From: Deltaproteobacteria bacterium | GTDB taxonomy: Bacteria > Myxococcota_A > Polyangia > HGW-17 | Assembly: GCA_027858615.1 (NCBI GenBank) | Contig: JAQICJ010000292.1 | Span: forward strand, 623 to 64,622 | Direction of reading: 5' to 3' | DNA: 64,000 nt | Part shown: one piece after another, positions 2,343 to 49,120 of the stretch | Numbering within the stretch: the stretch's first letter is position 1 | How the letters are laid out: each line of letters opens with the position of its first letter | The notes under the pieces: generated by a model | Databases searched by the model: none | Told to the model about the DNA's origin: nothing | Seen by the model: only the letters and a program-made list of their open reading frames with translations | Translations under genes and position numbers: made by a program

Positions 2343-2386
2343 TTTAGAGATAAGAGTATTCCTGTTCAGATTTGTGTTTGAAGCTG

Positions 2387-11211: not shown

Positions 11212-11436
11212 ATTCAGTATTGTTCATGTATTTTTCAACTGTTAGCAGTTGAATGGTTTCCATCTCATAAATGGGTTATTGATTAAGCTTGAAGTTGAAT
11301 TGACTCGCGCTGGGTAATTTTGCAGACAGGGTAAATTCTATTTGCACAATTAATACAACCCGAATAAATTCAGAGCCTTCAACTAACCTTTGGGCAGGAA
11401 CCAATTAATTTAATTCCCGATAAATAACGAGGAAAT

Positions 11437-14400
11437 ATGATGTTTAGAAAAAGTTTAATCGCCTCTATTGCTATGGGCTTGATGTTTTCAAGTATGGTAA
11501 TGGCCCAGGAAAAAAGAGATATTGATTATAAGGCTGACAAAAGTCTTAATGTCTCCAAAAAAGAACTTATAGCCAAAGCCAAGAAAAAACGTGAGAAGGC
11601 AAAAAGTTCAATCAAATATGAAGATTTCATCCAAAGAGCCAAAAAGGTTCAAAATCTCAAACTGCCGATTTTGAAAAGTATTATCCTCAAGAGTAAAAGA
11701 CAGATTCAACTGCTTAGAAAAACAGACAAGCGCAGAGTTGAATATCTGTTCAGAATGGCTGATGCCTTTGTTCAACTTGAGCAGATTTACAAGTTCAAGT
11801 ATGGTGAAGCAACTGAAAAACTTACTACAGCAAAAGGAACAAAACGCAGACTTTGGGTAAGGCGCAAAGCTTTGTACCTGAAAAGGAAAAAACAATATCT
11901 GGTTACCGCACTTAAACTTTTGAACCGTATTTCTACCAATGAGGCCTATTCTGACTGGCACCGCATGGACGAAGTTCTTTTCAAGCTTGGTGATATTGCT
12001 CGTGAACTCGGATATCAAGATATTATGAAGCAAAAGTTCCAGGACTTGCTCAGTCAACATCCCAAATCCAAGTTTGTTCCCAATGTTTACCTTGCTTTTG
12101 CTGAATTTTATTTCAAGCAAGGACGTAAAGGCCTCAGTAAGGCGACTGCTTTTTATAAAAAAGTTGTTGCTTCCCGTGCCAAAGGAACAGGCATTTACTA
12201 CTATGCAAGAAGGATGCTCGGCTGGTGTTATTTCAACCTCCAGCGTTTCCCCCTTGCCCTTTCCAATTTCCTCTTTGTTGCCAAAAAAGCCAAAAGAGAC
12301 AGTCTTCGTGCTCAGGCTCGCAACGAAGTTGTCATGACATATTCTTACCAGGGTAACAGAAAGCAAGCCTACGACTTCTTCAAACACCAACTGGGCGCCA
12401 AATACGTACGGGATTTGTACATTAAATTGGCTCAGGAATATTTTGCCCAGGGTAATATGATCAACATGATCTGGGTATATCAAGACATGATTCGCAGATT
12501 CCCCCGTGATGTAAATCGTTGTGATTGGCATCGCCAGGTATATCTCGGATACAAACTTGATCAACGCGTAGAAGAGATGACCGAAGCTCTCAATAATCTT
12601 GTTGACACCATGGGCGATATGAAAAAACAATTTGGTGAAAAGAAAATGCAATACAAAGTTTGTCGTGACTTTGCCAAATCCGCCCTTTTTGATCAGGCCA
12701 AGCGCTGGTTTGCCAAAGTTGAAAAAGGCAAGGCCAAGACTGAAGATGAACAGAAAAAACTCATGATCAGTGCAGCCAAATTGTATCAGCGTTTCCTCGA
12801 ATATTTTCCTAAATCAGAAGATGTTTGGGAAATGAGAGGCGACTATGCTTATCTATTGTATAAACTTGCCGAAATGTATGAACAAGAAACCAACGGCCGC
12901 AACCAGGATGCAGTTAGAGCCCGTTACAAAGCTGGTTGTCAGGAATATACAAAACTACTCAAATGGGACAAAAAACCATCTAAATTGACCCAAGTCCAAT
13001 TCAAAAAGCAAAGACGACAGGTAGGTAATGACACCGTAGCCTGTTGGATGAAAGTACTGGCGGTTGACTTTAAAAAAGAAGAAAGTGGTCGCAGCCAAAA
13101 GGCAGAGGATTACAAAAAACGCCGTAATTGTCTGAAAGCCAAAAAGAAAATGGAAGATATGGGACGCAAATTCAGAAGAAGATGCCCCGAATTCAAGAAA
13201 AATCTTCCCATATCTGAAAACTTGAAAAAGGTTATTGAAGTCTTTGAACTTTATGTAAAATATGTTGATGGCGGCAAATATCTTTCCACCATCAAATATA
13301 ACAGGGCGATGATCTTCTATATGTATCGTCATTTCAAAGAAGCAATTCCCTTGTTTAAGGATGCGATTTTTACTACTTACGAAAATAATCCCGAAATGGC
13401 CTATCGAGCTGTCAACTTTTTAATGATAGCCTATGATGCCGAAGACAGATTTGGTGAAATGGTTGATACCATCTCTGAATTGTTGAAACCAAAATACAAC
13501 AAAATGTTCACTGTCAATGCCGAAGCTCGCAAGCTCCGCAAAGAACTGGTTAAAGCCAAATTGGAAAATCTGGAACTTCAGGTATCCAGGCTTGGTTCTG
13601 AAGGCAGATTCCAGGATGCAGGCGATCTGCTCATGAAGATGGCTAGCGAATACAAAGAATCTTCCACCACTGAAAAAGTTATCAAATACTACAACAGTGC
13701 TTACATCGCATATGAAAAGGCCGGACAGGTAGGACAGGCTATTCGTTCCCTCAAGGTAATGCAGCACTTTTTCGGTAGTGAAAAGAAAAACAAGATGATC
13801 ATTGATTCCAATCTTAAAATTGGTCGTCTTTTCGAAAAAATCGCCATGTTTGGTAATGCAGCAAAATCTTACGAAGATTTCTTTAAGCAATATCCCCGTG
13901 ATCCAGATGCTGTAAAAGCTGCCAGACGTTCAGTAAAATTATACTGGTGGTCAGGAGATGTCAGAAAAGCCGAGAAAAAAGCCAGAGAATTTGTCACCAA
14001 GCTCAATCGCATGGGTGCCAGAAAATTCAGAGGCGACATGGCTTCACTCTTTTTTATGCTCCATAAATTCTATCTTGGTAAAAATCAAAGCAGAGTTACC
14101 AAATATCTGCAATTTTTCATCAAGAACATGGCCAAAACACGTACAAATGATCTAATCATTCGTGCTTATTCAAAATTGGGCAAAATTTACTGGGACAGTT
14201 CCTGTCCGGTGGAAACAAAATATGGCGTTTGCATGAAGATAGTTTACGTCACGAAACGATCCAAAACTGACACCTGGAAGGAAGCAAAAACAAAATTTGT
14301 TCCCAGAAAAAGAAAAGTACTGCGTTTAGCCAAAAGTTACTTTAAAAAAGCTGTTAAATATTACAATGCTTGGCGTAGAAGGAAAAAGACTCTGGGATCA

Positions 14401-15021
14401 ACCGGTAAATTTGATAGCACTCAGCGTGTCAAAGAAGCATTGAATGCAGCTGCCATGGCCAAATTCCATCTCGCTGAAATTGAATATGAAGATATTATCA
14501 GTGCTGAAATTCCAATGATCAGTGCCAAAAAATTGCAAAAATCTATGTCTCAGGTTCAAAAATGGATGAAAAAGCAGACCAAACTCATGTTGAAAGCCAA
14601 AAAATTATATGAGCAGGTTGGTAACATCAAGCTGGGTAAAAGAGGCAGATCTAAATATAATGATTGGTATGTACCTGCAGCAGGCCGTTTTGGTGCCATC
14701 TTCAGGAATTTCCATACAAAGGTAAATAACATAAAATTTGGTAAGGCTTTCGATAAAAACATTACTGCCAAGCTCAAAATGAGAGATGTTTTTGCTGAAG
14801 CTACCGAAAAATTCGAAAAATTTGCCAAAAATGGTTTTATTGCATGTGTTAAAGCTGCTCAAAGAACCGGTCGCTATGATGAATGGCAGGAATTTTGTGA
14901 AAAGGAACTGGCAGAAATAAGAAATTCAGTCAGTCCTCTTGCCGATGAAGTCTGGTCAGAACCAAAATACACTAATTTGAAACCAGGAAAAGCAACTATT
15001 ATGACAGTTCCTGTCAGATAG
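11437..15021 (+). CDS. Large (1194 aa) secreted lysine-rich TPR-like protein of unknown function.
   Basis: Signal peptide MMFRKSLIASIAMGLMFSSMVMA. Abundant KK/KR runs and helical repeat texture. 226-bp gap from the previous gene and 17-bp gap to the next. Confidence 0.6.
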   Translation: MMFRKSLIASIAMGLMFSSMVMAQEKRDIDYKADKSLNVSKKELIAKAKKKREKAKSSIKYEDFIQRAKKVQNLKLPILKSIILKSKRQIQLLRKTDKRRVEYLFRMADAFVQLEQIYKFKYGEATEKLTTAKGTKRRLWVRRKALYLKRKKQYLVTALKLLNRISTNEAYSDWHRMDEVLFKLGDIARELGYQDIMKQKFQDLLSQHPKSKFVPNVYLAFAEFYFKQGRKGLSKATAFYKKVVASRAKGTGIYYYARRMLGWCYFNLQRFPLALSNFLFVAKKAKRDSLRAQARNEVVMTYSYQGNRKQAYDFFKHQLGAKYVRDLYIKLAQEYFAQGNMINMIWVYQDMIRRFPRDVNRCDWHRQVYLGYKLDQRVEEMTEALNNLVDTMGDMKKQFGEKKMQYKVCRDFAKSALFDQAKRWFAKVEKGKAKTEDEQKKLMISAAKLYQRFLEYFPKSEDVWEMRGDYAYLLYKLAEMYEQETNGRNQDAVRARYKAGCQEYTKLLKWDKKPSKLTQVQFKKQRRQVGNDTVACWMKVLAVDFKKEESGRSQKAEDYKKRRNCLKAKKKMEDMGRKFRRRCPEFKKNLPISENLKKVIEVFELYVKYVDGGKYLSTIKYNRAMIFYMYRHFKEAIPLFKDAIFTTYENNPEMAYRAVNFLMIAYDAEDRFGEMVDTISELLKPKYNKMFTVNAEARKLRKELVKAKLENLELQVSRLGSEGRFQDAGDLLMKMASEYKESSTTEKVIKYYNSAYIAYEKAGQVGQAIRSLKVMQHFFGSEKKNKMIIDSNLKIGRLFEKIAMFGNAAKSYEDFFKQYPRDPDAVKAARRSVKLYWWSGDVRKAEKKAREFVTKLNRMGARKFRGDMASLFFMLHKFYLGKNQSRVTKYLQFFIKNMAKTRTNDLIIRAYSKLGKIYWDSSCPVETKYGVCMKIVYVTKRSKTDTWKEAKTKFVPRKRKVLRLAKSYFKKAVKYYNAWRRRKKTLGSTGKFDSTQRVKEALNAAAMAKFHLAEIEYEDIISAEIPMISAKKLQKSMSQVQKWMKKQTKLMLKAKKLYEQVGNIKLGKRGRSKYNDWYVPAAGRFGAIFRNFHTKVNNIKFGKAFDKNITAKLKMRDVFAEATEKFEKFAKNGFIACVKAAQRTGRYDEWQEFCEKELAEIRNSVSPLADEVWSEPKYTNLKPGKATIMTVPVR

Positions 15022-15037
15022 AAAATCCGGAGGAAAA

Positions 15038-16849
15038 ATGAAAAGGTCTCTATTTTATAAAATATTTTTAATGATTTTCATATTTGCATCATGCAACGGT
15101 AAAGATGACGATACAACCGCGAACGGAAAGAATGGAAACGGCAAAACTACTTATGGTGGTGATCCTACCAAATTTGGCAATGTAGGAACAGGCAAAGATG
15201 CCAAGGGTCAAATCAGAAAAAGCCAAAAAGTTTCCAAATCAGTAGTCAGGAAATTCAAAGTTGTTCTCGATCAGTATTTCAAATTGGGACAAGATGGATA
15301 TCCTAAAGACGAATGTAAAAAGGTTGCCGAAAAATTTCTCAAACTCAGAGATGAAAAGGGTGGAGAAAAAATAGTCAGTTTTCTTTATAATGCCGGAGTA
15401 ACTTATTATCGTTGTGGCATGAAAGAAAAAGCAAAAGATATTTTCAAGCAGGTGCTTGCAAAAGACGAAACTTTCCCTCCCGCAAAAATAGCTATTCTGT
15501 TGATGGGTAAAGTTGACAACATCAAAGACCTGGTTAAGCATGAAAAAGAAATAATGAGGGATAATTATGCTCTACAGGATCCTGATGTAAATTACAATTT
15601 TGCCCTGGCTTATTATAAACTTTACGAAGCTACTTCCAAGAAAAAATATTTCAAACCTTTGTTGGAATATTTGCGTCGCTCCCTTGCTAATATCGGTAAA
15701 ATTAAAAATGATACCCTTGAAGCTGTACGCATCAGAATGAGCGTCTATGCTCTTGCTATTCAATTTTATCTTCGAGCCGATAAAAATCGCCATGCAGATA
15801 AAGATCTTGCCCGAATTTTTATTTCTTCGGCCAGAGATTATATCAGACAATGCACAGGAAGATCAGCCATCAAAGATCAGGAAGCAAGGCAAGCACTGGC
15901 AAAATATCATAATGCCAGAGGATTGTTTGAACTCTACAATAACGAAATTGGCAATGCCTTCCGTGAATTCAAAAAAGCAAAAGATTGTGTTAATGAAGAT
16001 TATTCAGCTAATTTAAACATAGGAATGCTTGGTATCAAATTTCGCCAGCCTGATCTTGCTATTAACAGTCTCGAACTTATCCTTAAAAAATTCCCCAATA
16101 GTGAGAGCAAATATGAAACTAATCTTGCCTTGGGTGTTGCCTACAAAGTTTATGGAATGGAATTGCAGGATATGGCAGACCATCAATTTGAGAACAAAGA
16201 AAAATTGGAGAATAAACTCAAAGCTTTGCAGGTTTATTACAAAGAATATAAAAAAGGTGTAAAAGTTCTCAAAAAAGCACTTTCAGGCAAGGTAAATATC
16301 AGAAAAATGCTGCGTTACGTGCAGCCTTATCTGGAAGAAGTTTTCAAAAAACCTTATCCCTACAAGGTTATTCTAAAAAAATTGAACAAAGGTGATCTCA
16401 CTATCAAGCAACTCAAAAAGGTAATTGGCAAAGCTGAGTCAATTCTTGAAAACAGTGCCAACAATCTGATACCTGAAAGAATTAAAGATATCGAAAAAAA
16501 TCTTACTTTGCTCAAAGATGCAAACAGTCTGCGTAACAAGGCAAAAGATTATTTCAATAAAGGTATCAGCACCTATGAAAAGGTCATGGCTCAAAACAAA
16601 AATGATTACCGAGCTAAATTCAATCTGGCAATTTTACTTTATAAAACAGGTGGTCTGGTTGGAGATATGAAGACAAATTTTGCAAGAGCAAGAAAATTGT
16701 TCATCGAAATAAATAAAAATCGTAAAGTTCCAAAAGATCTTAGAAAAATATCTCGTAAGAATTTCTCAGATATAAAATCAGCTTTGGTAAATCTTGAAAA
16801 AATAGAAGAAGAAAAGAAAAATCCTCCCAAAGCCAAAGGTAAAAAATAG
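15038..16849 (+). CDS. TPR-like lipoprotein, third gene of the secreted basic cluster.
   Basis: Lipobox ...IFIFASC followed by NGKDDD. TPR-like repeats such as AKIAILLMGKVDN and YNFALAYYKLYEA. Starts 17 bp after the previous stop, with GGAGG upstream. Confidence 0.6.
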   Translation: MKRSLFYKIFLMIFIFASCNGKDDDTTANGKNGNGKTTYGGDPTKFGNVGTGKDAKGQIRKSQKVSKSVVRKFKVVLDQYFKLGQDGYPKDECKKVAEKFLKLRDEKGGEKIVSFLYNAGVTYYRCGMKEKAKDIFKQVLAKDETFPPAKIAILLMGKVDNIKDLVKHEKEIMRDNYALQDPDVNYNFALAYYKLYEATSKKKYFKPLLEYLRRSLANIGKIKNDTLEAVRIRMSVYALAIQFYLRADKNRHADKDLARIFISSARDYIRQCTGRSAIKDQEARQALAKYHNARGLFELYNNEIGNAFREFKKAKDCVNEDYSANLNIGMLGIKFRQPDLAINSLELILKKFPNSESKYETNLALGVAYKVYGMELQDMADHQFENKEKLENKLKALQVYYKEYKKGVKVLKKALSGKVNIRKMLRYVQPYLEEVFKKPYPYKVILKKLNKGDLTIKQLKKVIGKAESILENSANNLIPERIKDIEKNLTLLKDANSLRNKAKDYFNKGISTYEKVMAQNKNDYRAKFNLAILLYKTGGLVGDMKTNFARARKLFIEINKNRKVPKDLRKISRKNFSDIKSALVNLEKIEEEKKNPPKAKGKK

Positions 16850-25867: not shown

Positions 25868-26350
25868 TCAGTCTTCAAAAAAATAGGTAAAAAGCAGGGC
25901 GTCTTCCTGGTTATCAGAATAATATTGAGATCGGTATCCCGTTTGAACAAATCCGAACTTATTGTAAAGGGCTTTGCCGGCATGATTGCTTTTTCTGACT
26001 TCCAGATAAATTTTTTTAACGTTGACATCAGACCCCATTTGGATCAGGAATTTAAGCAAACTGCTTCCCAGTCCTTCTTTTCTGACAGCGGGATCGATGG
26101 CCAGATTGGTAATATGGATTTCATCGCAAACCAGCCAGAAAAAAATGTAACCCCTCAGTTTATTGTCGTTTTTTGAGACTATGCCGAAGGAAAAAGAATA
26201 GGAAAGATGGAATTCGGAAATAAAACTGATTTTTTTCCAGGGAGTTGAGAAGCATAAATTCTCAATTTCAAGAACGTCTTCAAGATAATCTGAATTTAAG
26301 GGAAAAATTTCAATTTGTTCCATTATATGTGATTTTGGATTGATTTCCAT
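25868..26350 (-). CDS. rimI: GNAT N-acetyltransferase, RimI-like.
   Basis: GNAT motif A region ...ITNLAIDPAVRKEGLGSSLLKFL... and ...KIYLEVRKSNHAGKALYNKFGF. It overlaps the engB stop, indicating an operon. Confidence 0.7.
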   Translation of the reverse strand: MEINPKSHIMEQIEIFPLNSDYLEDVLEIENLCFSTPWKKISFISEFHLSYSFSFGIVSKNDNKLRGYIFFWLVCDEIHITNLAIDPAVRKEGLGSSLLKFLIQMGSDVNVKKIYLEVRKSNHAGKALYNKFGFVQTGYRSQYYSDNQEDALLFTYFFED

Positions 26351-26928
26351 AATTCTTGAAGTCCGGTATTTTTGGTAGCTGAAAAAAGAATCGGAGGTGG
26401 CATCTGGGGAAGTTTCTTTTGATACTGAACAAGCAGGTTGCCCCTTTTGTTTTTAGGGATTTTATCTACTTTGGTATAGACAACCACTACATTATTGTTC
26501 ATTTGCTGCAGCCATAAAAGAAAATCAATTTCATAACCGCTGATACCTCTTCTGGAATCTATCAGAAGAACAACCAGTTTGAGATATTCTCTGCCGGATA
26601 AATATTCGGTGATAAGCTCGCCCCATTCATCTTGCAGTTTGCTGTTGACTTTGGCATAGCCATACCCTGGTAAATCCGCAAAAATAAAAGGAGCTAACTG
26701 TTTGGTAACAGTTTTGAAAAAATTAATTTCACGGGTTCGCCCAGGGGTCTGACTGATGCGAACTAATTTACGCCGGTTGAGCAGTAATTTGAGCACGGAA
26801 GATTTTCCCACATTTGATTTTCCGGCAATAGCTATTTCGGTCAGTGCCTCCTGGGGAAATTGTTTGCTTGAACGGGCACCGAGTAAAAATTCTGCCTCAG
26901 TGACTTGGGGAATTTTAGATAGGGTCAT
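26323..26928 (-). CDS. engB: Ribosome-biogenesis GTPase YihA/YsxC.
   Basis: G1 motif AGKSNVGKSS, then TPGRTR (G2) and DLPGYG (G3), and the NKxD-equivalent TKVDK. Its start overlaps the stop of the giant TPR gene (ATGA). Confidence 0.85.
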   Translation of the reverse strand: MTLSKIPQVTEAEFLLGARSSKQFPQEALTEIAIAGKSNVGKSSVLKLLLNRRKLVRISQTPGRTREINFFKTVTKQLAPFIFADLPGYGYAKVNSKLQDEWGELITEYLSGREYLKLVVLLIDSRRGISGYEIDFLLWLQQMNNNVVVVYTKVDKIPKNKRGNLLVQYQKKLPQMPPPILFSATKNTGLQELWKSIQNHI

Positions 26929-29900
26929 GAGATATCTTCGAGGAAATCCTTTATTTTTTGATTGTTTGGATCTTCAGATAATCCGCGTTTAGCAGAAGAA
27001 ATGGCTTTCTTGGTATTGCCAAGGGAGTGATCAATTTTAGCAATTTTGAAATAGATTTCACTTTTAGTAATGATTCCGTCGAGCTTTTGGAAAAGCATGG
27101 CTCGGTAAATTTTCTGGGCTTTTTCCAGTTCTTCGTTGTTTTCATGCAGACCTGCAATGGAAAGCATATTATCGATATTTGTAGGATTCAAACGTCTGGA
27201 CTGATTGAACATTTCCAGAGCTCCTGCATAATCTTCCTGACTTTTCTTGATTTTACCAATACGCTGATAGATTACCGAAAGCGATTTTTTGGCTTTGCGG
27301 TTAGTTTTCAACTTGTCGATAAGGTCTGTATATATTTCCATGGATTTTTCATGGTTGCCCGAGGCATAGTACGTATCACCCAGTTTTTGTTTTACTTCGA
27401 TGTTGTCAGGTTCAATCTTGGCTGCTTCTTCAAGGTATGGGAAAGCAGCTTCAGAAGCACTCAGTTGAACAAATAATTCAGAAATTGAAAGCAGTAGTGG
27501 CAGTCTTTCTTCTGGATCTTCGACTTTGGGTAATTTAATTTCATAAAGTCGCAGTAAACCTTCTTTGTTTTCTGTTTCTTCATAATGTTTTTTCAAAGCT
27601 GAAAAAGCTTCGGAATGTTCGGGATAAAGATCTAGAGCATCTTCCCATCTGGTGATTGCTGTTTCCTTTTCTCCAAGTTTAAGGGCAATATTACCACGGC
27701 GGAAGGCCAGTTCGGCTCCCTCTCTGCCTTTTGGTTCAAGCAAAGCTGCTTTTTCGAGATATTGCTGGCATTTTTCCAGATCTTCCATGTTTTCATAAAG
27801 CCTGGCCATACCGGTAAGAGCAGTTACGTTGCCGGAATCTCTTTCCAGAATTTCTCCGAGAATTTCAAGGGCATTGTCGGCAGAACCGAGGTTTTCTTCC
27901 CAGATGCGAGCAATTCGATCGAGATAATAAACTTCTTCTTCTGAATTACCGAGGGAATTAGACAAATCTTTTCGTTTTTCCAGGATTTGAATTAAATCAT
28001 GATAACGTTCGGTTTTAATGAAGATTTCATCTAACTTATTGAAAGCTTTTTCATTGGATGCATCGATATCGATGATCTGTTTGTAATAATCACCGGCTTC
28101 AAAAAGGTCTTCTTGTTTGTTCAAGACCAGAGAAGCCATATTTTCAAGAATTAGAACTTTGGCGGTTTCTTCCTGGGTTTGGGATAATTTGGTGAAGTAA
28201 ATATCTTTCAAAGCATCCCAGTCTTCCTTGCTTTTGTAGATGGAGCACAAGGCTTCGTAGGAAACTTCATCGGAAGGATACATGAGGAAAGTATCTTGCC
28301 AGATTTCTTCGGCTTCATTGGGTTTATCCATTTTTTCAGCCAATAACCGGGCTGTTTTGTGTTTGACCTCAAGCAGTCCCGGATCGTTGGCCATATAGTT
28401 GGCTTTAACCTTTAGAATATCAATGAGTTTTCCCCAATTTTCAGTTTTTTCGTAAAGTCTGATCAATTGGTCTTGTACTTCTTTTTTAGATTCATTCTGT
28501 TCAAAGAGTTTTTGCCAGGCATCAATTGCTTTTTGTGGTTGTTCAAGGCGCTGCTCACTGAGATTGGCAATTTCTTTGAGAATAGTTTCTTTTTTCTCAA
28601 AATCGAAGATAACTTCACTTCTTTTATCGAGAATTTCGATGAGCTTATTGACTTCATCAGTAATGCGATAGAATTCTTCCAGATGCTTGAGAGCTTTATT
28701 GTTTTCGGGTTCAATATTCAGAACAAAACGATAAAGTTTTTCCACAGACTCGTTGTCACCGCTGTTCAAAGCAATTTGTGCGGTGAGCATGGCCAGGTCG
28801 ATGGCTGTCATTTCATCTAATTTATTGTCAAGAATATCTGAAACAATTTTAATAAGTTCAGTCTCTTTATTGGAAATTTCGGCGATCTTGATGAACTCAT
28901 CAACATATTGCTTTTCTTCAGGGGTGGTTTTAACTGCTTTTCCCCAGAGTTCAAAAGCTACTTCAATATTGCCCAATTGCTGGGAAATATTTGCAGCTTG
29001 AACAATGTATTCAGATTTGATAATTGGATCTTTAGTAATTTCAATTCTTTTCTTGAGGAGAGCAACCATTTTTTCTTGATAACCGAGATTTTCATAAATG
29101 GGTTGCAGAAGATCGAGAATTTCGGAAAGAACCGGAGTATCCTTTTCGAGAAGTTTTTCCAGAGCTGTTATGGTCAACTCGTGATTTTCAGAGAAAGCAA
29201 GAGCTTCTCTCCAGGCAGCCAGGGCTCCTTCATGATTTTCGAAGTGTTCAAGACGAAGTTGGCCGAGGCGATAGAAATAAGTTGATTTCTGATCCGGTTC
29301 AAAAGCAGTGTTGGCTTCCATCTGCAGAATGTTTTCCAATTCGTCAAATTTGGAAGTTTGATTGAGCAGTCTGTCCAGTTGGTTGAGAATTTCCAAATTA
29401 TCAGGCATGAATTCAACAGCTTTTTGCATGACTCTCACAGCACCTTCGAGATCTTCAAGTGAGAGTTCGTAAATATTTGCCTGGGTGAGAAGAATTTTTT
29501 TGCGGATTTCTTCATCGTAGATTTCTTCTACAATTTCGGAATAAAGTTCAACCAGTTTATCCCAGGCCTGTTTTTCAGATGCTATAGTATGCAACTGGGT
29601 TTCAGCATCTTTGTTCTCTGGATTTTCTTTAAAGAGGATTCCCCAATATTTGAAGGATTCCATTGGTTCCTGGATGGTGAGATACAATTCAGCTATGGAT
29701 CTGAGATTTACTTTGCGTTTTTCAGGATCAGCCTGATCTTCGAGCAGTAATTTGTACAATTTGATCAGGGATTTGTTCTGACCTTTGGTTTGATAAAGGG
29801 GTTCGAGAATTTTGGCTACGATATTTCTGTATTCAACTCTGTCGAGAAGTTTTTCCAGAGCAGCTACAGCCTGTTCATGATCGGGGTTGAAATCGAGGAT

Positions 29901-32900
29901 AAAATTGTATTTTTCAACAGCTTTTTCGATGTCGTTGATTTTATCTCTCAGGATATTTCCAGTTTCAAGAATCAGGTCGTTACGTTTGTCGTTGTCAGTT
30001 TCCAGTCCTGTTCTTTGTTCGAGAGTTTTGATTAACTCATACCAGTTCTCGTCTTGTTTATACAAGTCTGAGAGCATTTCCATGGCTTTGATATTGTCAG
30101 GGGAATCTTCAGTGATAATTTTGAGAGCTGAGATAGCTTCGAAGGAATCATTGAGTTTTTCCTGCTGAATTTCTGCCAGTTTGAAAGCTTTTTCAATTTT
30201 GTTTTCTCCATCAAGACGGATGATGTTTTTCAGAATTTCAGAAAGTTCATTATACTTTTCGGTTTCCCGGTAGAGGGATTCGAGAGCACTGAGAGCCTCA
30301 GTGTCTTCGGGGGAATACATCAGCAGTTTATCCCAGGTGGAAATGGCTTCTTCAGGTTCGGAAAGTACGTCCTGACGCAAGCGGGCAAGTTGTCTCAGAG
30401 TGGAAAGAATTTCCTCCTGATCTGTCAGTAGTTCTGACTTTCTAGCCAGGAGAGCAGAAAGTTTTTTCCATTGTTCGGATTCTTGCAACAGTTGAGCAAG
30501 TTCGGTGATTGCCTGCAGATGATCATCACGGATATCCAGCAATTTGTAATAGGTGATGATTGCCTGTTCCCTGTCATCAAGAGTTTCAGCCTGTATTCTG
30601 GCAATTTTCAAGAGAACATCAATTTGCAATTCGGTGTCATAGTTGTCTTTGATGCCTTCCTGAAGAACAGCTATCAATTCTTCCCAATTACCTTCCCTTA
30701 CTGAAATTTCATAGATTCTATTGAGGATTTCACGGTTGGAAGGTTCGAGCTTCCATGCTTCACTGAGGGATGTGAAGGCCCGAGCCAGATCATCCCCCCT
30801 TCCGTCGTAAAGATGGGCGCATTCTTTGAGTAATTCTATTTTGCGATATTCATCTTCGGAAAGTTCAATCTGGATTTCATATACAAAGACAAGTCGTTTC
30901 CAATAATCAAGTTCTTTGTAGATGGGTTCCAGAATTTTAGCCACCCTCAATTTGATGGAATCTTTATCCAGAAGTTTTTCCAGATAATCGATGGTGTTTT
31001 CATTGAGAGGATCGATATTGATGATTTCTTCAAGTCTGAAAACAGCGGAATCTGGATCATCAACTTTTTCATAATAAAGTTCGGCAAGCTTGAGATTGAG
31101 TTCTATGATTTCTGCAGGTACTGTTTTCATTGATACCTGCTGGATCAGGTGTTCGATCAAATCTTCCCAGTTGCCGAGTTTTGTATAGAGTTTGGTTAAA
31201 GCTTCAACCGCTTTTTGTTCTTCTGGTGATGATTCAAGAATTTCGCGATAAACTTCTACTGCCTCTTCGAGTTTATCGAGTTTATCTTCGAGAAGTTCAG
31301 AAATCTTGTACAGATTCTGGTTTTTCTTTTCAGGATCATAAAAGGAGTCGGCTGCATCGCGATATACTTTGAGCAGATTGTCCCAGCGTTCATTTTCAAG
31401 GAGGAGTAACTCAAGTTCTCTGAAGATATTTTCGTTGGAACTGTCACTTTCGAGAATACGTTTGTAATACTTCATGGACTCGTCGATTTTATTCATTTCC
31501 CGGGCATAAATACGGGCAAGGTGAGTCATGATGATAGTGATGTGTTCTCCCGCATAATAGGCATCTTCTACAATTTTAGAGAATACTTCGGTGAGTACTT
31601 CCCATTTATTCAGGAGTTCCGAGAGATTGAGAAGACGATCCCTGACCTTTTGATTGTCAGGTTGTTCCAGCAGCAGATGACCATACCAGGTGTAAGCTTC
31701 TTCAAGATCATCGAGGACAGTTTCATATAGTTCTGCTATGCGGCTGGTAAGTTGGGCTTTTTCTTCGGGAGTTTGTTTAATGTCTCTCTGAATAGAAAGA
31801 ACCTTGATCAGTTTTTTCCATTCCTGACGAGCTGCATAAACAGGCACGAGTACTTCTGAAGCTTCACCGGAGTAATCTTCTTTATCGAGGAAACTTTCCA
31901 GTCTGTTGATGATTTCTTCGGAAGTAGGACTTCCACCCAGAGCGGCACGGAAAGATTCAAGAGCTCTGTCCTGATTTTCGAGATAATCACAGAAAATTTC
32001 ACCCATATTGAATCTGATTTCCACAGCTTCTTGCAATTTGGTGGTGTAGCGAATTCTGTTTTCATACAGTTCTATCAAATTGTCCCATTTTTCCAGATCA
32101 AAGAGAATCTCTTCGAGAGAACGGAAAATCTTGTAGTCGTCCGGCTTGAATTCGAGGATAGTGTTATAGTATTCAATGGCTCGAATTGGTTCATTGAGTT
32201 TTTTCCTGCACAATTCGGCTGCTTTAACCAGAGCGTCATAACGGGCATCAAGATTGTCCAGAGCCATATTGGCCCTTTTTGTATAGATGCCAAGCAGTTG
32301 ATCCCATTGCTCTGTAAGTTCGTAAACCCTTTCCAGAGCATCCATGGAGTGAAAATTTTCAGGGGAAATTTCCAGAACTTTTTCATAATACTTCTGAGCA
32401 ATATCAAGTTTTTCGAGTTCATCTCTGGCAATGTCGGCTATGGTCAGAAATACCTGTTGTTGCAGATTTATGTCGATAATGTCATCGGCTACCTGAATGT
32501 AGAGGTCAACCAATTGTTGCCATTTATCTTCCAGAGCGGCAATGCGCTGAAGTTGAGCAAGAATATCAGGCAGTTCAGGTTCTCCAACAGCTTCCTTGAG
32601 GGCTTGTCCGTAAAAGCCGAAGGCCGAAACCGGTTTACCAAGTTCGGTTTCTTTGATTCCGGCTATTTTAAGGAAGAGGGATACTTTCTGGTGGGGATCA
32701 AAAGCATATCCGGCTTTGAGAACATAAAGGGCTGTAAGTTTTTCCCAATTGTTTTCAAGTTCATAGATAGTTTCAAGAATTTCCGCTGACTGAAGGGCAA
32801 GAGTTTCTTCACCTTGAAGCATGGATTCCAGAGCTGCTTTGGATTTTTCATGGGAGGGATCTTCATCAAGAACATTTCTGTAGTAAAAGATTGCTCTTTC

Positions 32901-35900
32901 AGGTTCTTCAAGATGTACCTGCAGAATATAACCCAGCCTGTAGTTGAGAGAGCGTCGGTCTTCGTCGTTTTCGGTGAGATTGAGTTCTCTTTCTACATAA
33001 TCGAAAACATCGGTCCAATTGCCCGATTGTTCATTGAGGCGGGCAAGATAACGGATAGCTTCGCCATGTTCCGGGTTTTCGTTGAGAATTGAAGTCCAAG
33101 CTTCAATGGCTCCTTCGAGATCATTAAGAGATTCTTCCCTGAGGATGGCAATTCTGGAGAAATAATTGAGTCGTTGTTCTTCATCCTGGGTAAGTTCGAC
33201 TTTTTTGGCCAGAATTTTTACAAGCTCATCCCATTTTTCGATGCGGGAATAAATAAATTCAAGTCGATCAAGAGCTTCGTCATCAGTGGGAAATTCTTCC
33301 AGTAATTTTTGATAGGTTTGAGCGGCTTCCAGAGGAGCATCAAGCATGTCTTCCTGGAGAACTGCGATATTACGGTAAATATCTTTTCGTTCTTCTTCTC
33401 CCTGAGTCCAGTTTAGTTGCTTTTTATAGATTTCAATAATTTCAATCCATTCTTCCATGGATTGATACAGGTTCACCAGAGCCTGGGCAGCTTCGTCCTG
33501 TTTTTGCAACATGCTTTCTTCACCGGCTTTTTCCAGAAGTTTTCTATACCATTCGATGGATTTTTTCGGTTCTTCCAGATGGGTCTCATGGATATCAGCT
33601 ATTTTTTCGAGGTATTCGATGATAAGCAGATTGTTGTCTTCAACTGCTTCAATGGCTTCCTGCCATACTTCTACTAATTTTTCGTAGGAATTGAGAGCAA
33701 TAGCGAGATTTTCGATGGAATCTCTGACATTGGCACTGGCGGGATCAAATTGGATAGCTCGTCGCCATACTTCAAATGCTTTTTCCGGTTCACTGAGTTT
33801 GAGGGTAAGAATTTGGCCGATTTTAGAGAGAATATCAACGGCTTCATAGTTGTCCTGGGTGTTTTCAAGTTTAATTTCCAAGAGATCAACCAATTTTTCA
33901 TGGTTATTTTCATCTTCCATGAGCCGGATGAGAATATCAGCTGCTTTTTGTCTTGTTTCCTTGATTTGAAGCATCTCTTCGAGCATCTGGCGAGTATTTT
34001 CGTGTCTCTGATCGAATTCAAGGATTTCACGGAGAATATCGATGGCCAGATTGGGAGATTCCATTTTGTGCAGGAGAATATCGGCTCGTTTATACATGAG
34101 ATCGATTCGTTCCTGGTCGGAATCAGCATAGATGAGTTCGTCTTCATAGAGGGCGGCCAGATTTTCCCATTTGTCCGATATTTCGTAAAGTCTGATGAGA
34201 GCTTCGAAGGCTTCATTAGATTCATTATCGAGTTCACGCAATTTGGTATATGAGTTGATGGCAGCTTCTACGTTGGCCAGCATATTTTCGTTGAGATGGC
34301 TCAACTTGGTGAGGATATCTTTTTGTTCTTCGGGTTCAACTACAACATCAAGGCGTTTAGTATACAGAGTTTTAAGATCTTTCCAGTCTTCAGAACCGGA
34401 GAAAATTCTTTCGAGAGCAAGAAAAGCGCCTTCATGAAGGGGATCTTCTTCCAGTACGGTAAGATAGAATTTTTGGGCTTCTTCCCGATTGTCTTCGTCA
34501 ATTTCTTCCATGCGGGCAATTTCCCAGGACAGGGAAAGTTTGAGTTTGTCTTCATGGTTTTCTATGTATTCGAGATAAGTTTCTTTGAGAGTGTTAATTC
34601 GTTCATCAAGTTTGGCGAGGGTGTGAAGTTTTTTGCGTACTTCTTCGTCCTCGGGTTTCAGTTTGAACAATTGAATAGCCAGATCAAAGCCCTTGCCCAT
34701 GTCACCTATTTTCTGAGTAGTGATATCGAGAAGTTCCTGGTAAAGTTCAATCTTTTTGGATTCATTTTCTTCTTGTCGGGCAATGACTTCAAGAGCGAAG
34801 GTATAATCTTCCCAGAGTTCTTCTTGCTTGTAATAAGGAAGAAGATGTCCGGCAGCTTCGATTCCGGTCTGGTTGTTTTTTTGATTTTCAAGAATTTCTC
34901 TGATAGCGGCTATAGTTTCTTCGTGCTGGGGAGAAAATTCCAGAACTCTGGCAAAATGGGGCAACGCATCTTCAGGTTGTTCAAGCATGTCTTTGAGAAG
35001 TTCGCCCAGACGGAATTCGAGGTTGATGATTCTTTCTTCTTCCTCAACTTCCTGGATTTCCATTTTAAGGATGCGAGCCAATTCTTCAAATTCATTTTCC
35101 CCGAGATAGAGGCGGTCAAGAGCCTGCAAGGATTTGAGATGAGCAGGATCTATGTCGATAATTTCGTTGTAATAACGAATTGCGCTTTCCTTGTCATCTT
35201 TTTGGATTTCCATGATGGAGGCCATTTTTTCGCGGGCCCAGATGGTTTTTTCGGGTTCGCTGTCTAATTCTATCTGTTTGTTTAAAATTGCTGTAAGTTC
35301 ATCCCACTCTTCTTTGATTTCGTAAATAGAAGCAAGTCCTTCGAGAGCTTTGTGGGATTCTTTATTGATGGCAAGAATTTCCTGGAGAACTGATTCGCCT
35401 TTTTCCAGTTCGGAGAGTTTTTCAATATAAATTTTGGAAAGACGTGAGAGCAGATCAATTTTGTCGTCGCCTTCCATGTCAGGTTTGACCTGATTGTATA
35501 TTTCTGCCAGATCAATCCATTTGTCAGCCTGCTCGGCGAAACTTTGCAATTGCTCAATAATTTGATTGTCAAAAGGGGAAATGAGATAGGCTTTTCCACA
35601 CCACTTGAAAGCTTGAGTGGGATCGCTGAGTTTTTTGTCGTAGCTTTCAATAAGTTTGTGGAGCCATTGCAATTTCTCTTCTTTGCTGTCGGCGTTTTTG
35701 AGCAGAACTTCGTACATATCGGCAGCTTTGTTCCAGCGATTCAACTCTTCATAGAGGGGCAGGAGGTTATCAGCTGCGGTTTTGTTGGTTTCATCGGTTT
35801 TCAGAACTTTTTCGTAAGGCTTGATGGCTCTTTCCGGTTTGCCGATTTTGGTGCGGTAGATATCAGCTACTTTAAAGAGCAGGAAGATTTTAGCTTCAGG

Positions 35901-38084
35901 ATCTTCTTCTCTAGAAGCGTATTGACTTAGAGTTTCGATATATCCCAGCCAATTGTCGTTTTGAGAGAATAAATTTTCCAGTTGTTCCCAATTTTTATTT
36001 TCTGCATAAAGAGTTTTTAAAATTTTGAGAGACTTTGGATGGTTGGGATTGAGTTCGTGAACTCTTTCCCATATTTCCATGGCTTTGGCGCCATAGGATT
36101 TCATTTTGTCAGTGAGGATATTTCCGGTTTTTTCGAGAAGGGGCAGAGCCTCTTCATCGGTGGACATGGAAATTTTGCGATTGAGCATTTCTACCAGAGC
36201 GGGATATCTTTTGTCCCTTCTGTAGAGGAAAATCAGATTTTCCATGGCGTCTATATCGTAGGGATCAACTTCCAGAATGCGATTCCAGGTTTCAATAGCC
36301 AATTTTATGTTGTTAAGGGGGTTTTGAGCAAATTCGGCCAGTTCGACAAGTTTTTCGTGTTTTTCTGATTCGGGGATCAGTTCAAGTTCTTTTTGGCGCA
36401 GGAAAAACAGACCCTTCCAGTTTCTTCTTTGTTCGTAGATGTCTTTGAGACTGTTGATTACTTCGATGTCGCCGGGATCAAATTCAAGAATTTCTTCAAG
36501 GGGCTGAGCAGCCCGATTGGGATTAGAAAGATTTTCGCTCCAAAAATGGGCGATTTGTTTGAGGTATTCTTTTTTGGTGTCGAGCTCTTTGGTATTATCA
36601 GCTTTTTTCTGATAAATGGTGATGACTTCTTTCCATCTTCCCATTTTTTTGTATTTTTCAGAAAGTTCTTCAATGGCCTGTTCATTTTCGGGATCTAGTT
36701 TCAGAACGCTGTTGTAAACATTGACAACCATGGCATCGACTTGCATTTTATCTTCGATAATCTGAGCCATTTTGATGAGGGTGTTTACTCTGGTTTCGAT
36801 GTTATCTTTGGGCAGTGAACGCTCTTCTTTTTTGTAAAGTTCAACCAGGGCATTCCATTTTTCTGTCTTGTGGTAGAGTTTTTTCAACTCTTCTTTGGCT
36901 TCTTCGTGGGCAGGATCCTGCTTGAGAATTCGTTTCCAGACGTCAATTGCCTTGCCGGGGTTAACTTCGATGCTGAATTCAGCTATTTTGCGGGCGAATT
37001 TGACAGTTTCGTTGATGTCGCCTCTGGCTTTGCGCATTGCCTGCTGCAGCATGGAAATATAGCGCATGGGCTCATCTTTTTCGAGGTAATAGGCTTCGTA
37101 AAAATTGAGGAGCAGGGGGGAATCAGGCTCGGTTTTGCGTAATTTGCGGAAATATTGTTCGGCTTTGTCAAGATCTTCCAGTTGTCTCCACCAGATCATT
37201 CCCAATTGGAGATAAATCCCGGGATCGGGGCGACGAGAAGTCTGGATTTCATTTTCATAAAACTCAATCAGATCTTCGGTTTTATCTTGTTGGTTATAGG
37301 CTGAGACAAGCAGAGTTTTAGACTTGGCGTTATCAGGATCTTCTTCTCTTACTTTTTTGATTAGAGTTTCAGCTTCCTGGGGATTTTGAAGGTATTCCAG
37401 CAAGTATTCTGCTGTTTCGAGGGTCAGCAACTGGCGGTTGTCAGGATCTTCAAAAAGATCGAGTTTGGGCTTGATCAGGTTGACAAATTCTTCGTATCTT
37501 TGATTTTCCCTGTAGATGCGACAAAGATGCTTGAGGGCGTCACCGTTGGTTTCATCCTGTTTAAGGGATTGCATGAGCAGAAGTTCTGTCTGTTCTTTGT
37601 CTTCTGCATATTTGGCCGATACTTCCGCAGCTTTGTAGAACATATGAGAAGCCAGCTCTTTTTCTTCAGCGTCTTCGGCTTCAGTGGTGAATTTGGAAAG
37701 CAGCTTTTCGTAATTGCCGGCTTCCAATTCAAGTTCTTCTACTTTTTCGGATAATTTTTCGTCTTCCGGCTGCAATTTGGCAAGTTGGCGGTAAGCTTCG
37801 AGGGAATTGTTCCCTTGCCATAACTCTGATTCCAGCAATTCAGCTTTTCTTTTGATATTTTCAATATTTTCAGGATCTATTTCCAGAATAATATCCAAAA
37901 AAGCCAGGGCAATTCTCAGTCGATTTGACTTGATTGCTTTGCGGAATGATTTTTCCAGAAAAACTACCTTTTCATTGTCAGAAATATCTTCTTGGGCAAG
38001 TTTTTCTTTGATTGTTTCAATCTGGTTGTTGATTTGGGAAGAACTCAGGAGGTTGGTGATTAAGGTTTTGATATCTTTAAGCAT
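26925..38084 (-). CDS. Giant (3719 aa) acidic protein made almost entirely of tandem TPR-like repeats. No signal peptide.
   Basis: A single uninterrupted 11,160-nt frame. Repeats of ~34-42 aa carry a recurring W-(D/E/N)-x-L-(I/V/A)-x-(L/I)-Y helix-turn motif (EKWDELVKIL, ENWEKLTALY, EQWDQLLGIY, EKWDNLIELY, ERWDNLLKVY, GNWEDLIEHL ...). Strongly Glu/Asp-rich. All antisense ORFs inside it look spurious. Confidence 0.85.
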   Translation of the reverse strand: MLKDIKTLITNLLSSSQINNQIETIKEKLAQEDISDNEKVVFLEKSFRKAIKSNRLRIALAFLDIILEIDPENIENIKRKAELLESELWQGNNSLEAYRQLAKLQPEDEKLSEKVEELELEAGNYEKLLSKFTTEAEDAEEKELASHMFYKAAEVSAKYAEDKEQTELLLMQSLKQDETNGDALKHLCRIYRENQRYEEFVNLIKPKLDLFEDPDNRQLLTLETAEYLLEYLQNPQEAETLIKKVREEDPDNAKSKTLLVSAYNQQDKTEDLIEFYENEIQTSRRPDPGIYLQLGMIWWRQLEDLDKAEQYFRKLRKTEPDSPLLLNFYEAYYLEKDEPMRYISMLQQAMRKARGDINETVKFARKIAEFSIEVNPGKAIDVWKRILKQDPAHEEAKEELKKLYHKTEKWNALVELYKKEERSLPKDNIETRVNTLIKMAQIIEDKMQVDAMVVNVYNSVLKLDPENEQAIEELSEKYKKMGRWKEVITIYQKKADNTKELDTKKEYLKQIAHFWSENLSNPNRAAQPLEEILEFDPGDIEVINSLKDIYEQRRNWKGLFFLRQKELELIPESEKHEKLVELAEFAQNPLNNIKLAIETWNRILEVDPYDIDAMENLIFLYRRDKRYPALVEMLNRKISMSTDEEALPLLEKTGNILTDKMKSYGAKAMEIWERVHELNPNHPKSLKILKTLYAENKNWEQLENLFSQNDNWLGYIETLSQYASREEDPEAKIFLLFKVADIYRTKIGKPERAIKPYEKVLKTDETNKTAADNLLPLYEELNRWNKAADMYEVLLKNADSKEEKLQWLHKLIESYDKKLSDPTQAFKWCGKAYLISPFDNQIIEQLQSFAEQADKWIDLAEIYNQVKPDMEGDDKIDLLSRLSKIYIEKLSELEKGESVLQEILAINKESHKALEGLASIYEIKEEWDELTAILNKQIELDSEPEKTIWAREKMASIMEIQKDDKESAIRYYNEIIDIDPAHLKSLQALDRLYLGENEFEELARILKMEIQEVEEEERIINLEFRLGELLKDMLEQPEDALPHFARVLEFSPQHEETIAAIREILENQKNNQTGIEAAGHLLPYYKQEELWEDYTFALEVIARQEENESKKIELYQELLDITTQKIGDMGKGFDLAIQLFKLKPEDEEVRKKLHTLAKLDERINTLKETYLEYIENHEDKLKLSLSWEIARMEEIDEDNREEAQKFYLTVLEEDPLHEGAFLALERIFSGSEDWKDLKTLYTKRLDVVVEPEEQKDILTKLSHLNENMLANVEAAINSYTKLRELDNESNEAFEALIRLYEISDKWENLAALYEDELIYADSDQERIDLMYKRADILLHKMESPNLAIDILREILEFDQRHENTRQMLEEMLQIKETRQKAADILIRLMEDENNHEKLVDLLEIKLENTQDNYEAVDILSKIGQILTLKLSEPEKAFEVWRRAIQFDPASANVRDSIENLAIALNSYEKLVEVWQEAIEAVEDNNLLIIEYLEKIADIHETHLEEPKKSIEWYRKLLEKAGEESMLQKQDEAAQALVNLYQSMEEWIEIIEIYKKQLNWTQGEEERKDIYRNIAVLQEDMLDAPLEAAQTYQKLLEEFPTDDEALDRLEFIYSRIEKWDELVKILAKKVELTQDEEQRLNYFSRIAILREESLNDLEGAIEAWTSILNENPEHGEAIRYLARLNEQSGNWTDVFDYVERELNLTENDEDRRSLNYRLGYILQVHLEEPERAIFYYRNVLDEDPSHEKSKAALESMLQGEETLALQSAEILETIYELENNWEKLTALYVLKAGYAFDPHQKVSLFLKIAGIKETELGKPVSAFGFYGQALKEAVGEPELPDILAQLQRIAALEDKWQQLVDLYIQVADDIIDINLQQQVFLTIADIARDELEKLDIAQKYYEKVLEISPENFHSMDALERVYELTEQWDQLLGIYTKRANMALDNLDARYDALVKAAELCRKKLNEPIRAIEYYNTILEFKPDDYKIFRSLEEILFDLEKWDNLIELYENRIRYTTKLQEAVEIRFNMGEIFCDYLENQDRALESFRAALGGSPTSEEIINRLESFLDKEDYSGEASEVLVPVYAARQEWKKLIKVLSIQRDIKQTPEEKAQLTSRIAELYETVLDDLEEAYTWYGHLLLEQPDNQKVRDRLLNLSELLNKWEVLTEVFSKIVEDAYYAGEHITIIMTHLARIYAREMNKIDESMKYYKRILESDSSNENIFRELELLLLENERWDNLLKVYRDAADSFYDPEKKNQNLYKISELLEDKLDKLEEAVEVYREILESSPEEQKAVEALTKLYTKLGNWEDLIEHLIQQVSMKTVPAEIIELNLKLAELYYEKVDDPDSAVFRLEEIINIDPLNENTIDYLEKLLDKDSIKLRVAKILEPIYKELDYWKRLVFVYEIQIELSEDEYRKIELLKECAHLYDGRGDDLARAFTSLSEAWKLEPSNREILNRIYEISVREGNWEELIAVLQEGIKDNYDTELQIDVLLKIARIQAETLDDREQAIITYYKLLDIRDDHLQAITELAQLLQESEQWKKLSALLARKSELLTDQEEILSTLRQLARLRQDVLSEPEEAISTWDKLLMYSPEDTEALSALESLYRETEKYNELSEILKNIIRLDGENKIEKAFKLAEIQQEKLNDSFEAISALKIITEDSPDNIKAMEMLSDLYKQDENWYELIKTLEQRTGLETDNDKRNDLILETGNILRDKINDIEKAVEKYNFILDFNPDHEQAVAALEKLLDRVEYRNIVAKILEPLYQTKGQNKSLIKLYKLLLEDQADPEKRKVNLRSIAELYLTIQEPMESFKYWGILFKENPENKDAETQLHTIASEKQAWDKLVELYSEIVEEIYDEEIRKKILLTQANIYELSLEDLEGAVRVMQKAVEFMPDNLEILNQLDRLLNQTSKFDELENILQMEANTAFEPDQKSTYFYRLGQLRLEHFENHEGALAAWREALAFSENHELTITALEKLLEKDTPVLSEILDLLQPIYENLGYQEKMVALLKKRIEITKDPIIKSEYIVQAANISQQLGNIEVAFELWGKAVKTTPEEKQYVDEFIKIAEISNKETELIKIVSDILDNKLDEMTAIDLAMLTAQIALNSGDNESVEKLYRFVLNIEPENNKALKHLEEFYRITDEVNKLIEILDKRSEVIFDFEKKETILKEIANLSEQRLEQPQKAIDAWQKLFEQNESKKEVQDQLIRLYEKTENWGKLIDILKVKANYMANDPGLLEVKHKTARLLAEKMDKPNEAEEIWQDTFLMYPSDEVSYEALCSIYKSKEDWDALKDIYFTKLSQTQEETAKVLILENMASLVLNKQEDLFEAGDYYKQIIDIDASNEKAFNKLDEIFIKTERYHDLIQILEKRKDLSNSLGNSEEEVYYLDRIARIWEENLGSADNALEILGEILERDSGNVTALTGMARLYENMEDLEKCQQYLEKAALLEPKGREGAELAFRRGNIALKLGEKETAITRWEDALDLYPEHSEAFSALKKHYEETENKEGLLRLYEIKLPKVEDPEERLPLLLSISELFVQLSASEAAFPYLEEAAKIEPDNIEVKQKLGDTYYASGNHEKSMEIYTDLIDKLKTNRKAKKSLSVIYQRIGKIKKSQEDYAGALEMFNQSRRLNPTNIDNMLSIAGLHENNEELEKAQKIYRAMLFQKLDGIITKSEIYFKIAKIDHSLGNTKKAISSAKRGLSEDPNNQKIKDFLEDIS

Positions 38085-38391
38085 ATCCTCTCTCTTGTAA
38101 ACGCTCTGGAAAAATTTAATTTCTTTGAGTTAATATTACCATTTTACTACTTGCAGAACCTGATCAAAAAAAATCATAAAAAGTTAAATACCTAATAAAT
38201 ACAATTATTAAGCTTTGTTTTATGAATTATGAGGTGTTTATTTTGTTTGGGAAATTTGGAATTTTTTTTACCATCAACTGATGTTAACGGTTTCATTACT
38301 TTGTTGCAATGACAAAGATCATTTTAATGAATTTTTTTGGAAATTAAGTTCAAAATGGGGTTTTTTGACTGGGGAGGAAATAAAATTTGGA

Positions 38392-39760: not shown

Positions 39761-39769
39761 CTAATTTCC

Positions 39770-48632: not shown

Positions 48633-48644
48633 GTTTAACTACCA

Positions 48645-49088: not shown

Positions 49089-49120
49089 TTCCTTAACAGG
49101 AAAATTCGTTCGAATTTTTA

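Follow-up and report, generated by a model that had tools for sequence, protein, structure and literature searches.

This analysis concerns a window of 64,000 nucleotides (nt) from a Deltaproteobacteria bacterium (GenBank assembly GCA_027858615.1, contig JAQICJ010000292.1, positions 623 to 64,622 of the forward strand), and in particular one gene that makes up 17.4% of it. This gene, referred to here as the giant gene, starts with ATG and continues for 3719 codons with zero internal stops. Its product is identical to GenBank MDA3864811.1, which is recorded as "hypothetical protein PF689_13190" of a Deltaproteobacteria metagenome-assembled genome (MAG). At 40% GC a stop-free frame of 3720 codons cannot, we infer, have originated by chance; the GC content of the gene (0.38-0.42) is like that of its flanks. 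The features of the locus are as follows, in window positions:

25868..26350, minus strand: rimI, S18-alanine N-acetyltransferase (TIGR01575, 118.5 bits, cut-off 86)
26323..26928, minus strand: engB, YihA/YsxC ribosome-biogenesis GTPase (TIGR03598, 194.9 bits, cut-off 124)
26925..38084, minus strand: the giant gene, encoding a 3719-amino-acid (aa) acidic α-solenoid like those of tetratricopeptide repeats (TPRs)
38085..38391, minus strand: upstream intergenic region of 307 nt, AT-rich, ending GAGAGGAT before the ATG; probable promoter or leader

By its sequence, the giant protein is a predicted cytoplasmic α-solenoid, genuine and in a single piece, of about 100 TPR-like hairpins. It has a mass of 436 kDa and an isoelectric point (pI) of 4.69 (E 14.1%, D 6.6%, K+R 13.2%), and carries no transmembrane segment or signal-peptide core, the highest 19-residue Kyte-Doolittle mean being 1.32. 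Ten families of the Pfam TPR clan score far above their gathering thresholds, among them TPR_19 (157.7 bits), TPR_6 (129), TPR_8 (120), TPR_7 (113.6), TPR_14 (108) and TPR_2 (104), for which the cut-offs are 23-28 bits; PF25064, the TT21/IFT139 ARM-like TPR model, is also above threshold with 138 bits. An earlier reading of the window from its letters alone (the sequence-only reading) had described one uninterrupted 3719-aa frame over about 17% of the window, with an acidic, all-TPR product lacking a signal peptide and transmembrane segments, and this description holds throughout. Membership of the MamA and PrsT families was considered and rejected, because the high scores come from repeat summation: the 213 bits to MamA (cut-off 200) are a sum over 8 separate stretches against a profile of only ~200 aa, and the 309.2 bits to PrsT fall below the cut-off of 312.2 and are spread over 9 stretches of the giant protein, the profile being 899 aa long. 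No curated NCBIfam model naming the family was matched.

The gene is real and under purifying selection. That it could be an assembly chimera, a collapsed repeat or a decaying pseudogene is suggested by its unusual length and protein-level repetitiveness, and by nothing more. Against this, an independent assembly, the Polyangia MAG contig JAWLEA010000007.1 (L001), carries a frame of the same 11,160 nt with zero indels, at 89.7% nucleotide and 93.6% amino acid identity. Between the two genes synonymous divergence (dS) is 0.53 and nonsynonymous divergence (dN) 0.032, giving a dN/dS of 0.06 that is uniform over eight consecutive segments and is exceeded by the ratios of both engB (0.125) and rimI (0.115) in the same comparison. 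The copy on a further contig (P0170) differs in one residue of 3719 (99.97% identity). Intact orthologous open reading frames (ORFs) of 3750-3880 aa are present on at least 12 independent metagenome contigs, and full-length orthologues number in the dozens. There are no tandem DNA repeats in the gene, and direct repeats do not exceed 44 nt, which excludes repeat collapse and recent duplication. An artefactual origin is thus extremely improbable.

The sequence-only reading had divided the protein into units of 34-42 aa, a length that did not survive closer analysis. BLOSUM autocorrelation gives z = 19.3 at lag 72, compared with 7.8 at lag 34 and 7.1 at lag 144, and the W-x-x-L...Y signature recurs at an interval of about 72 aa, on every second hairpin. 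As the lag-72 peak far exceeds that at lag 34, the true unit is a double hairpin of 72 aa. A unit hidden Markov model (HMM), iterated from 12 seed copies and with units of 69-72 aa, yields the consensus y.klLe.dPen.eAle.LerLYe..ekWekLieiyek.lel..dpeekiell.kiAeI.e.kLedpe.A. Units within the giant protein are on average 21% identical to each other (maximum 39%). The tiling is broken by a half-unit at seven places, where the sequence reads "...dP.H..A..ALE.LL....r..aA.iLEP.Ye..g.W" (short form "ALExLL...ILEPxY"). The parts of the gene, all on the minus strand, are:

37797..38084, minus strand: N-terminal ~96 residues, outside the unit tiling; start codon backed by orthologues aligning from residue 1
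27003..37796, minus strand: unit array of ~47 full 72-aa double-hairpin units (aa 97-3694), from the unit HMM tiling
34800..34949, minus strand: punctuation motif 1 (aa ~1046-1095), "ALExLL...A.lLeP.Y"
33885..34034, minus strand: punctuation motif 2 (aa ~1351-1400)
32736..32885, minus strand: punctuation motif 3 (aa ~1734-1783), modelled with one additional short helix
31803..31952, minus strand: punctuation motif 4 (aa ~2045-2094), modelled with one additional short helix
30885..31034, minus strand: punctuation motif 5 (aa ~2351-2400), modelled with one additional short helix
29760..29909, minus strand: punctuation motif 6 (aa ~2726-2775), modelled with one additional short helix
29067..29216, minus strand: punctuation motif 7 (aa ~2957-3006)
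26955..28091, minus strand: C-terminal region (aa ~3332-3710) with the most canonical 34-aa TPRs; best stretches for Pfam TPR_1/2/8, and MamA- and PrsT-like matches

The structural model behind these helices is an AlphaFold2 (AF2) prediction of aa 1701-2800 from a four-sequence alignment, with a mean predicted local distance difference test (pLDDT) score of 87.7. It consists of 61 helices of 10-19 residues with no strands, and each of the four interruptions that it covers contributes one extra short helix. For the C-terminal 1100 aa, an AF2 model made from the single sequence is helical but of low confidence (pLDDT 50). Extrapolating from about 5.5 helices per 100 aa, the whole protein would contain roughly 100 hairpins. 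TPR superhelices rise by about 9-10 Å per TPR, and the giant solenoid, if extended, would therefore measure about 0.1 µm.

Foldseek searching of the PDB with the model of aa 1701-2800 returned only long TPR scaffolds, namely Ski3, IFT139/TTC21B, Ctr9, OGT and Naa15 (E = 1e-15 to 1e-8). With identities of 12-14% and a TM value of about 0.1, this likeness is one of fold class and not of family membership. Ski3 (PDB 4buj), IFT139/TTC21B (8bbg_D; PF25064), Ctr9 (6af0) and Naa15 (6c9m) are continuous TPR-hairpin superhelix platforms for several partners, as the giant protein appears to be; the latter is set apart from the eukaryotic solenoids by its bacterial origin, its regular 72-aa double unit and a length three to four times theirs. 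A NatA-like reading drawn from the Naa15 match was rejected, the similarity being that of TPRs in general.

Sequence comparison places the giant protein in a large orthologous family that is restricted to Myxococcota and whose members share length, unit order, motifs and charge. When the N-terminal 1200 aa of the giant protein served as query in an exhaustive HMMER search, 7657 cluster representatives were matched with E <= 1e-3, of which 2004 had E <= 1e-30. Nearly all of the 150 best-scoring representatives are 3500-4200 aa long (median 3753) and co-linear from their own N-termini; a second size class within the family, of 4050-4170 aa, has an N-terminal extension of 200-300 aa. For 110 of the 150, one BLASTP high-scoring segment pair suffices to span over 80% of each of the two proteins (25-39% identity), end-to-end examples being residues 1-3711 of the giant protein against 1-3703 of P0021 (38.6%) and 1-3719 against 1-3731 of P0031 (28.8%). 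A full-length alignment of 61 sequences has a gap fraction of at most 0.09 everywhere and flat conservation (0.36-0.52 per 100-aa block). Its near-invariant positions are structural Ala, Leu, Trp and Tyr, the seven interruption motifs are kept across the family, and so is acidity (median pI 4.72; D+E 19.6% versus K+R 12.3%). All source-named members, from the 30 representatives looked up, none of which is named for a cultured species, are from Myxococcota, Polyangia, Myxococcales or "Deltaproteobacteria" MAGs and are called "tetratricopeptide repeat protein". A tblastn search of plasmids for the giant protein gave no match.

Orthologous units (25-39% identical) are more alike than neighbouring units (21%), and therefore the array was built before the family diversified, each unit having kept its own identity. 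The sequence-only reading had taken the regularity of the repeats as a sign of expansion by unit duplication. Such duplication, as something still visible, is contradicted by the low identity between units, the lack of DNA-level repeats, and a unit number and order that are fixed in orthologues as divergent as these; from these comparisons, the unit expansion is ancient.

Two other kinds of protein show similarity to the giant protein. The ~1675-aa myxobacterial TPR proteins (P0004, P0006, P0008-P0010) are, like it, TPR proteins of Myxococcota, and are 20-24% identical to parts of it. They have less than half its length and match anywhere along it in alignments that are not co-linear, and because they are short and non-co-linear they represent a separate paralogous family. 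P0042, a metagenomic protein of 7720 aa from ENA, is a double-length relative with an N-terminal CxxC...CxxC zinc-ribbon motif (MELHCASCGQ...CPSCG); it resembles the giant protein at the repeat level only (20-22% identity, non-co-linear).

Downstream, the stop codon of the giant gene and the start codon of engB share an ATGA overlap (junction CTCATGACC), which is the same in L001. The engB gene in turn overlaps rimI, by 28 nt if rimI starts at its first ATG; with Met10 as the start, which is likelier, the overlap is 1 nt (TAATG). Both overlaps had been pointed out in the sequence-only reading and are confirmed. The three genes are probably co-transcribed, and the ATGA overlap would allow coupled translation. 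Gene order is also retained at the locus of P0021 (L088/L089), where a giant gene whose product is 38.6% identical is followed after 9 nt by genes for EngB (44% identical; 178 bits), RimI (123 bits) and an unknown protein of ~490 aa. The engB gene is absent beside the giant genes encoding P0022 (35% identity, L090), P0025 (31%, L093), P0053 (27%, L091), P0157 (L094) and P0039 (L092), and beside the fragment P0003 (L006). Across about 50 metagenomic loci whose downstream sequence extends for 0.7 kb or more, retrieved with a C-terminal four-sequence profile, tblastn and phmmer found engB only in L076, a weak case in which it lies 4.7 kb from a doubtful TPR ORF of 216 aa. In one sub-clade the giant-engB-rimI order has become fixed as an operon arrangement, and it is not a property of the family. 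Adjacency to engB is thus conserved as far as L001 and L088/L089 and no further among the loci inspected. The most likely reason for the placement of engB and rimI is that they are transcribed together with the giant gene, not that they share its function.

Elsewhere in the family, the downstream neighbours vary (queA-tgt-yajC-secD, kinases, proteases and others). Downstream ORFs of 1191, ~100 and ~640-670 aa in metagenome loci were considered as gltD-, gltF- or gltG-like genes and dismissed, as their sequences are those of Tgt, QueA, YajC and SecD together with spurious high-GC ORFs. Two neighbours recur in the larger, high-GC part of the family: a divergent ABC-exporter pair (ABC_membrane+ABC_tran) directly upstream of the giant gene in L091, L093, L035, L040, L013 and L052, and a conserved membrane ORF of ~137 aa directly downstream in L094, L048, L009, L038, L061, L018 and L057. 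Where located precisely, these neighbours are:

L091 6019-9815 and L093 4205-7818: divergent ABC-exporter pair
L094 14972-15385: ~137-aa ORF encoding a signal peptide and hydrophobic segments, 4-nt overlap with the giant gene, no Pfam or NCBIfam match

A gene for a HisKA-REC-GGDEF protein is found near the giant gene in L091 and L094. Generic GNATs are encoded just downstream in L091 (21742-22167), L033 (4156-4599, with a 4-nt overlap) and L031 (12026-12466). They were rejected as RimI, with 27-36 bits against the cut-off of 86, and this linkage may be due to chance or be a remnant of an older one.

We lean towards regarding the giant protein as a GltI/AgmK-type scaffold of the Agl-Glt machinery for gliding, by analogy in taxon, size, architecture and context. 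To our knowledge, GltI is the only experimentally studied protein that fits its description. GltI (AgmK, MXAN_4863, UniProt Q1D2V1) is a protein of 3822 aa in the focal-adhesion machinery with which Myxococcus xanthus glides. It is cytosolic, without a signal peptide; gltI mutants are unable to glide, GltI-YFP (yellow fluorescent protein) is found in focal-adhesion clusters, and without GltI neither AglZ nor MglA joins the machinery (PMC4508894). Cytosolic TPR proteins of such a size had already been described in Myxococcota (PMC4508894, PMC11761067), a point missing from the sequence-only reading. Homologues of GltI have 4074, 4104 and 4095 aa in Anaeromyxobacter and 4089 aa in Stigmatella, and that of Sorangium, a member of Polyangia, is a split pair of 1774+2081 = 3855 aa (Luciano et al., Table S3, PMC3169522). 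These sizes (3822-3855 and 4074-4104 aa) fall into the same two classes as the family of the giant protein. The two published Pfam TPR_2 matches of GltI start at residues 3114 and 3186, exactly 72 apart (Table 1, PMC3169522). Both proteins are from Myxococcota, made almost entirely of TPR-like helices, cytosolic or predicted to be so, and marked by a 72-aa spacing. The length quoted for the GltI model, ~1100 Å (PMC11761067), is of the same order as the ~0.1 µm estimated for the giant solenoid. Six GltG-FHA sites have been predicted in GltI, to which the seven conserved interruptions of the giant protein may putatively correspond.

The window also contains a cluster reminiscent of glt genes, 10 kb from the giant gene and on the other strand:

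9481..16849, plus strand: three genes for secreted basic TPR proteins of 576, 1194 and 603 aa (pI 9.8-10.0)

The charge contrast between these proteins and the giant protein (pI 4.69), noted in the sequence-only reading, is real. The first of the three matches the NCBIfam model GltC (NF033756) over its full length (E = 4.3e-68, 230 bits). The proteins of gltC-gltD-gltE have 580/1193/453 aa in Anaeromyxobacter, 560/1155/441 in Haliangium and 568/1289/497 in Sorangium (Table S3, PMC3169522). The order of the trio is that of gltC-gltD-gltE in these three genera, and its first two members match GltC and GltD in size; the third, with 603 aa, exceeds the 441-497 aa of the GltE proteins listed. Neither gltF nor gltG follows the trio. 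The TolQ-TolA-TolB genes of the window (47916-51417, plus strand) were considered as an AglRQS motor and set aside as ordinary Tol-Pal (TolQ TIGR02796, 216 bits). In this Tol-Pal cluster the TolA-like gene is of the TonB_2 type and TolB is a PD40 protein.

The immediate flanks of the giant gene comprise genes for a lipoprotein, a methyltransferase and a radical-SAM (S-adenosylmethionine) protein, and rpsA upstream, and engB, rimI and an ORF of 558 aa without assigned identity downstream. This last ORF was rejected as GltJ-like, having no zinc ribbon and no transmembrane segment. The 307-nt leader folds somewhat better than shuffled sequences (z = -2.4) and has no Rfam match, no Rfam families being found in the window at all, and a promoter and terminator scan gave results no better than shuffles. 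The preceding ORF (38392-39147, minus strand) encodes a 251-aa lipoprotein that contains many Cys residues and a low-complexity stretch of poly-Asn/NNV. Between this gene and rpsA lie genes for a B12-binding radical-SAM protein (433 aa) and a class-I SAM methyltransferase (217 aa) at 39107-41071 (minus strand); both are missing from L001 (compare 8690-8878), and they therefore represent a strain-specific two-gene indel. Further away, a 588-aa ORF (53429-55195, plus strand) has a weak N-terminal match to a Bdellovibrio-type MIDAS (metal ion-dependent adhesion site) adhesin and a C-terminal "acidic double-disulfide repeat".

A number of observations weigh against a place in the gliding machinery. 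The likeness to GltI goes through published descriptions and sizes, so that homology is a deduction. The sole database match named for AgmK ("Adventurous gliding motility protein K"), P0004 of 1673 aa, was rejected as a link, since it belongs to the non-co-linear ~1675-aa family and its name is no evidence for GltI identity. The 230 bits of the GltC match are below the equivalog cut-off of 450, and the trio may be a paralogous Glt/Nfs-like system. No GltI homologue is listed for Haliangium (Table S3, PMC3169522). In M. xanthus, Anaeromyxobacter, Stigmatella and Sorangium gltI lies in the glt cluster, with gltH upstream and gltJ downstream, and the giant gene does not. Genes for FHA/TonB (GltG) or zinc-ribbon (GltJ) proteins and other glt genes are absent within 8-10 kb of it here and in L088 and L090-L094, and a GltJ-like zinc ribbon does not follow the giant gene in about 50 metagenomic flanks. 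GltG FHA, GltJ GYF and AglZ partners were likewise not seen in the 64-kb window. Many family members instead adjoin the divergent ABC-exporter pair and the small membrane ORF. A reasonable though less likely alternative is therefore that the giant protein is a Myxococcota-wide cytoplasmic scaffold or "ruler" that is not specific to gliding (serving, for example, envelope, polarity or transport organisation), with GltI as a derived recruit of the glt system or an unrelated look-alike. The six fully inspected contexts, which have housekeeping or unrelated neighbours and no glt clusters, speak for this, as do the recurrence of the exporter pair (6 loci) and of the 137-aa membrane ORF (7 loci) and the very large size of a family that has strictly conserved length and no curated NCBIfam name. 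Against it, GltI is the one giant cytosolic TPR protein of the phylum to have been studied experimentally, and it agrees in size classes and in 72-aa spacing; the window has a gltC-like trio not far from the giant gene; and two independent families of ~3800-aa TPR proteins in one phylum would be unparsimonious.

The sequence-only reading had gone in another direction, seeing in the linkage to engB and rimI an undescribed arrangement of a scaffold with ribosome biogenesis. Under such an explanation the giant protein would be a housekeeping cytoplasmic platform rather than a motility part, working with EngB and RimI in the maturation or modification of ribosomes as Naa15 does with Naa10 (NatA), or like ribosome-bound Ski3; co-translated with the two enzymes in this clade, it would recruit them or nascent subunits, and the downstream GNATs of other loci would be remnants of an ancestral scaffold-acetyltransferase pairing. 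The 4-nt overlap with engB and the tight engB-rimI junction are consistent with this, as are the gene order kept in L001 and, despite identities of only 39% for the giant protein and 44% for EngB, in L088/L089, the generic GNATs in two further lineages (L091; L033/L031), and the presence of Ski3 and Naa15 among the Foldseek analogues. However, engB is not adjacent in L090-L094, L006 and about 50 downstream flanks (L076 being the weak case), which undoes the claim for the family, the additional GNATs score far below the RimI cut-off, and the structural matches are those of TPRs in general. Moreover, EngB and RimI are universal, and the giant protein is confined to one phylum. We therefore hold a ribosomal role, analogous though it would be to these eukaryotic systems, to be very unlikely.

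If the giant protein is a GltI-type scaffold, as we favour, it could act as a multivalent docking platform of fixed length at the cytoplasmic face of an envelope machine of the Glt type. Each unit or module would present its own binding surface, the seven conserved interruptions would be candidates for repeated partner-binding or hinge sites, and the fixed number of units would determine how the bound complexes are spaced or in what stoichiometry they occur.

Whichever identity holds, coupling to engB and rimI gives no general clue to function. If the family is not GltI, Myxococcota would have a second 400-kDa scaffold, as yet uncharacterised, on which selection is strong. If the family is that of GltI, the giant scaffold of the gliding machine would be conserved far beyond the cultured model species, its gene being uncoupled from the glt cluster in most lineages. 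Its unit count would be strictly fixed, and the seven motifs would then be concrete candidates for the repeated docking sites that AlphaFold modelling has proposed for GltI and would offer sequence-defined targets for mutation.

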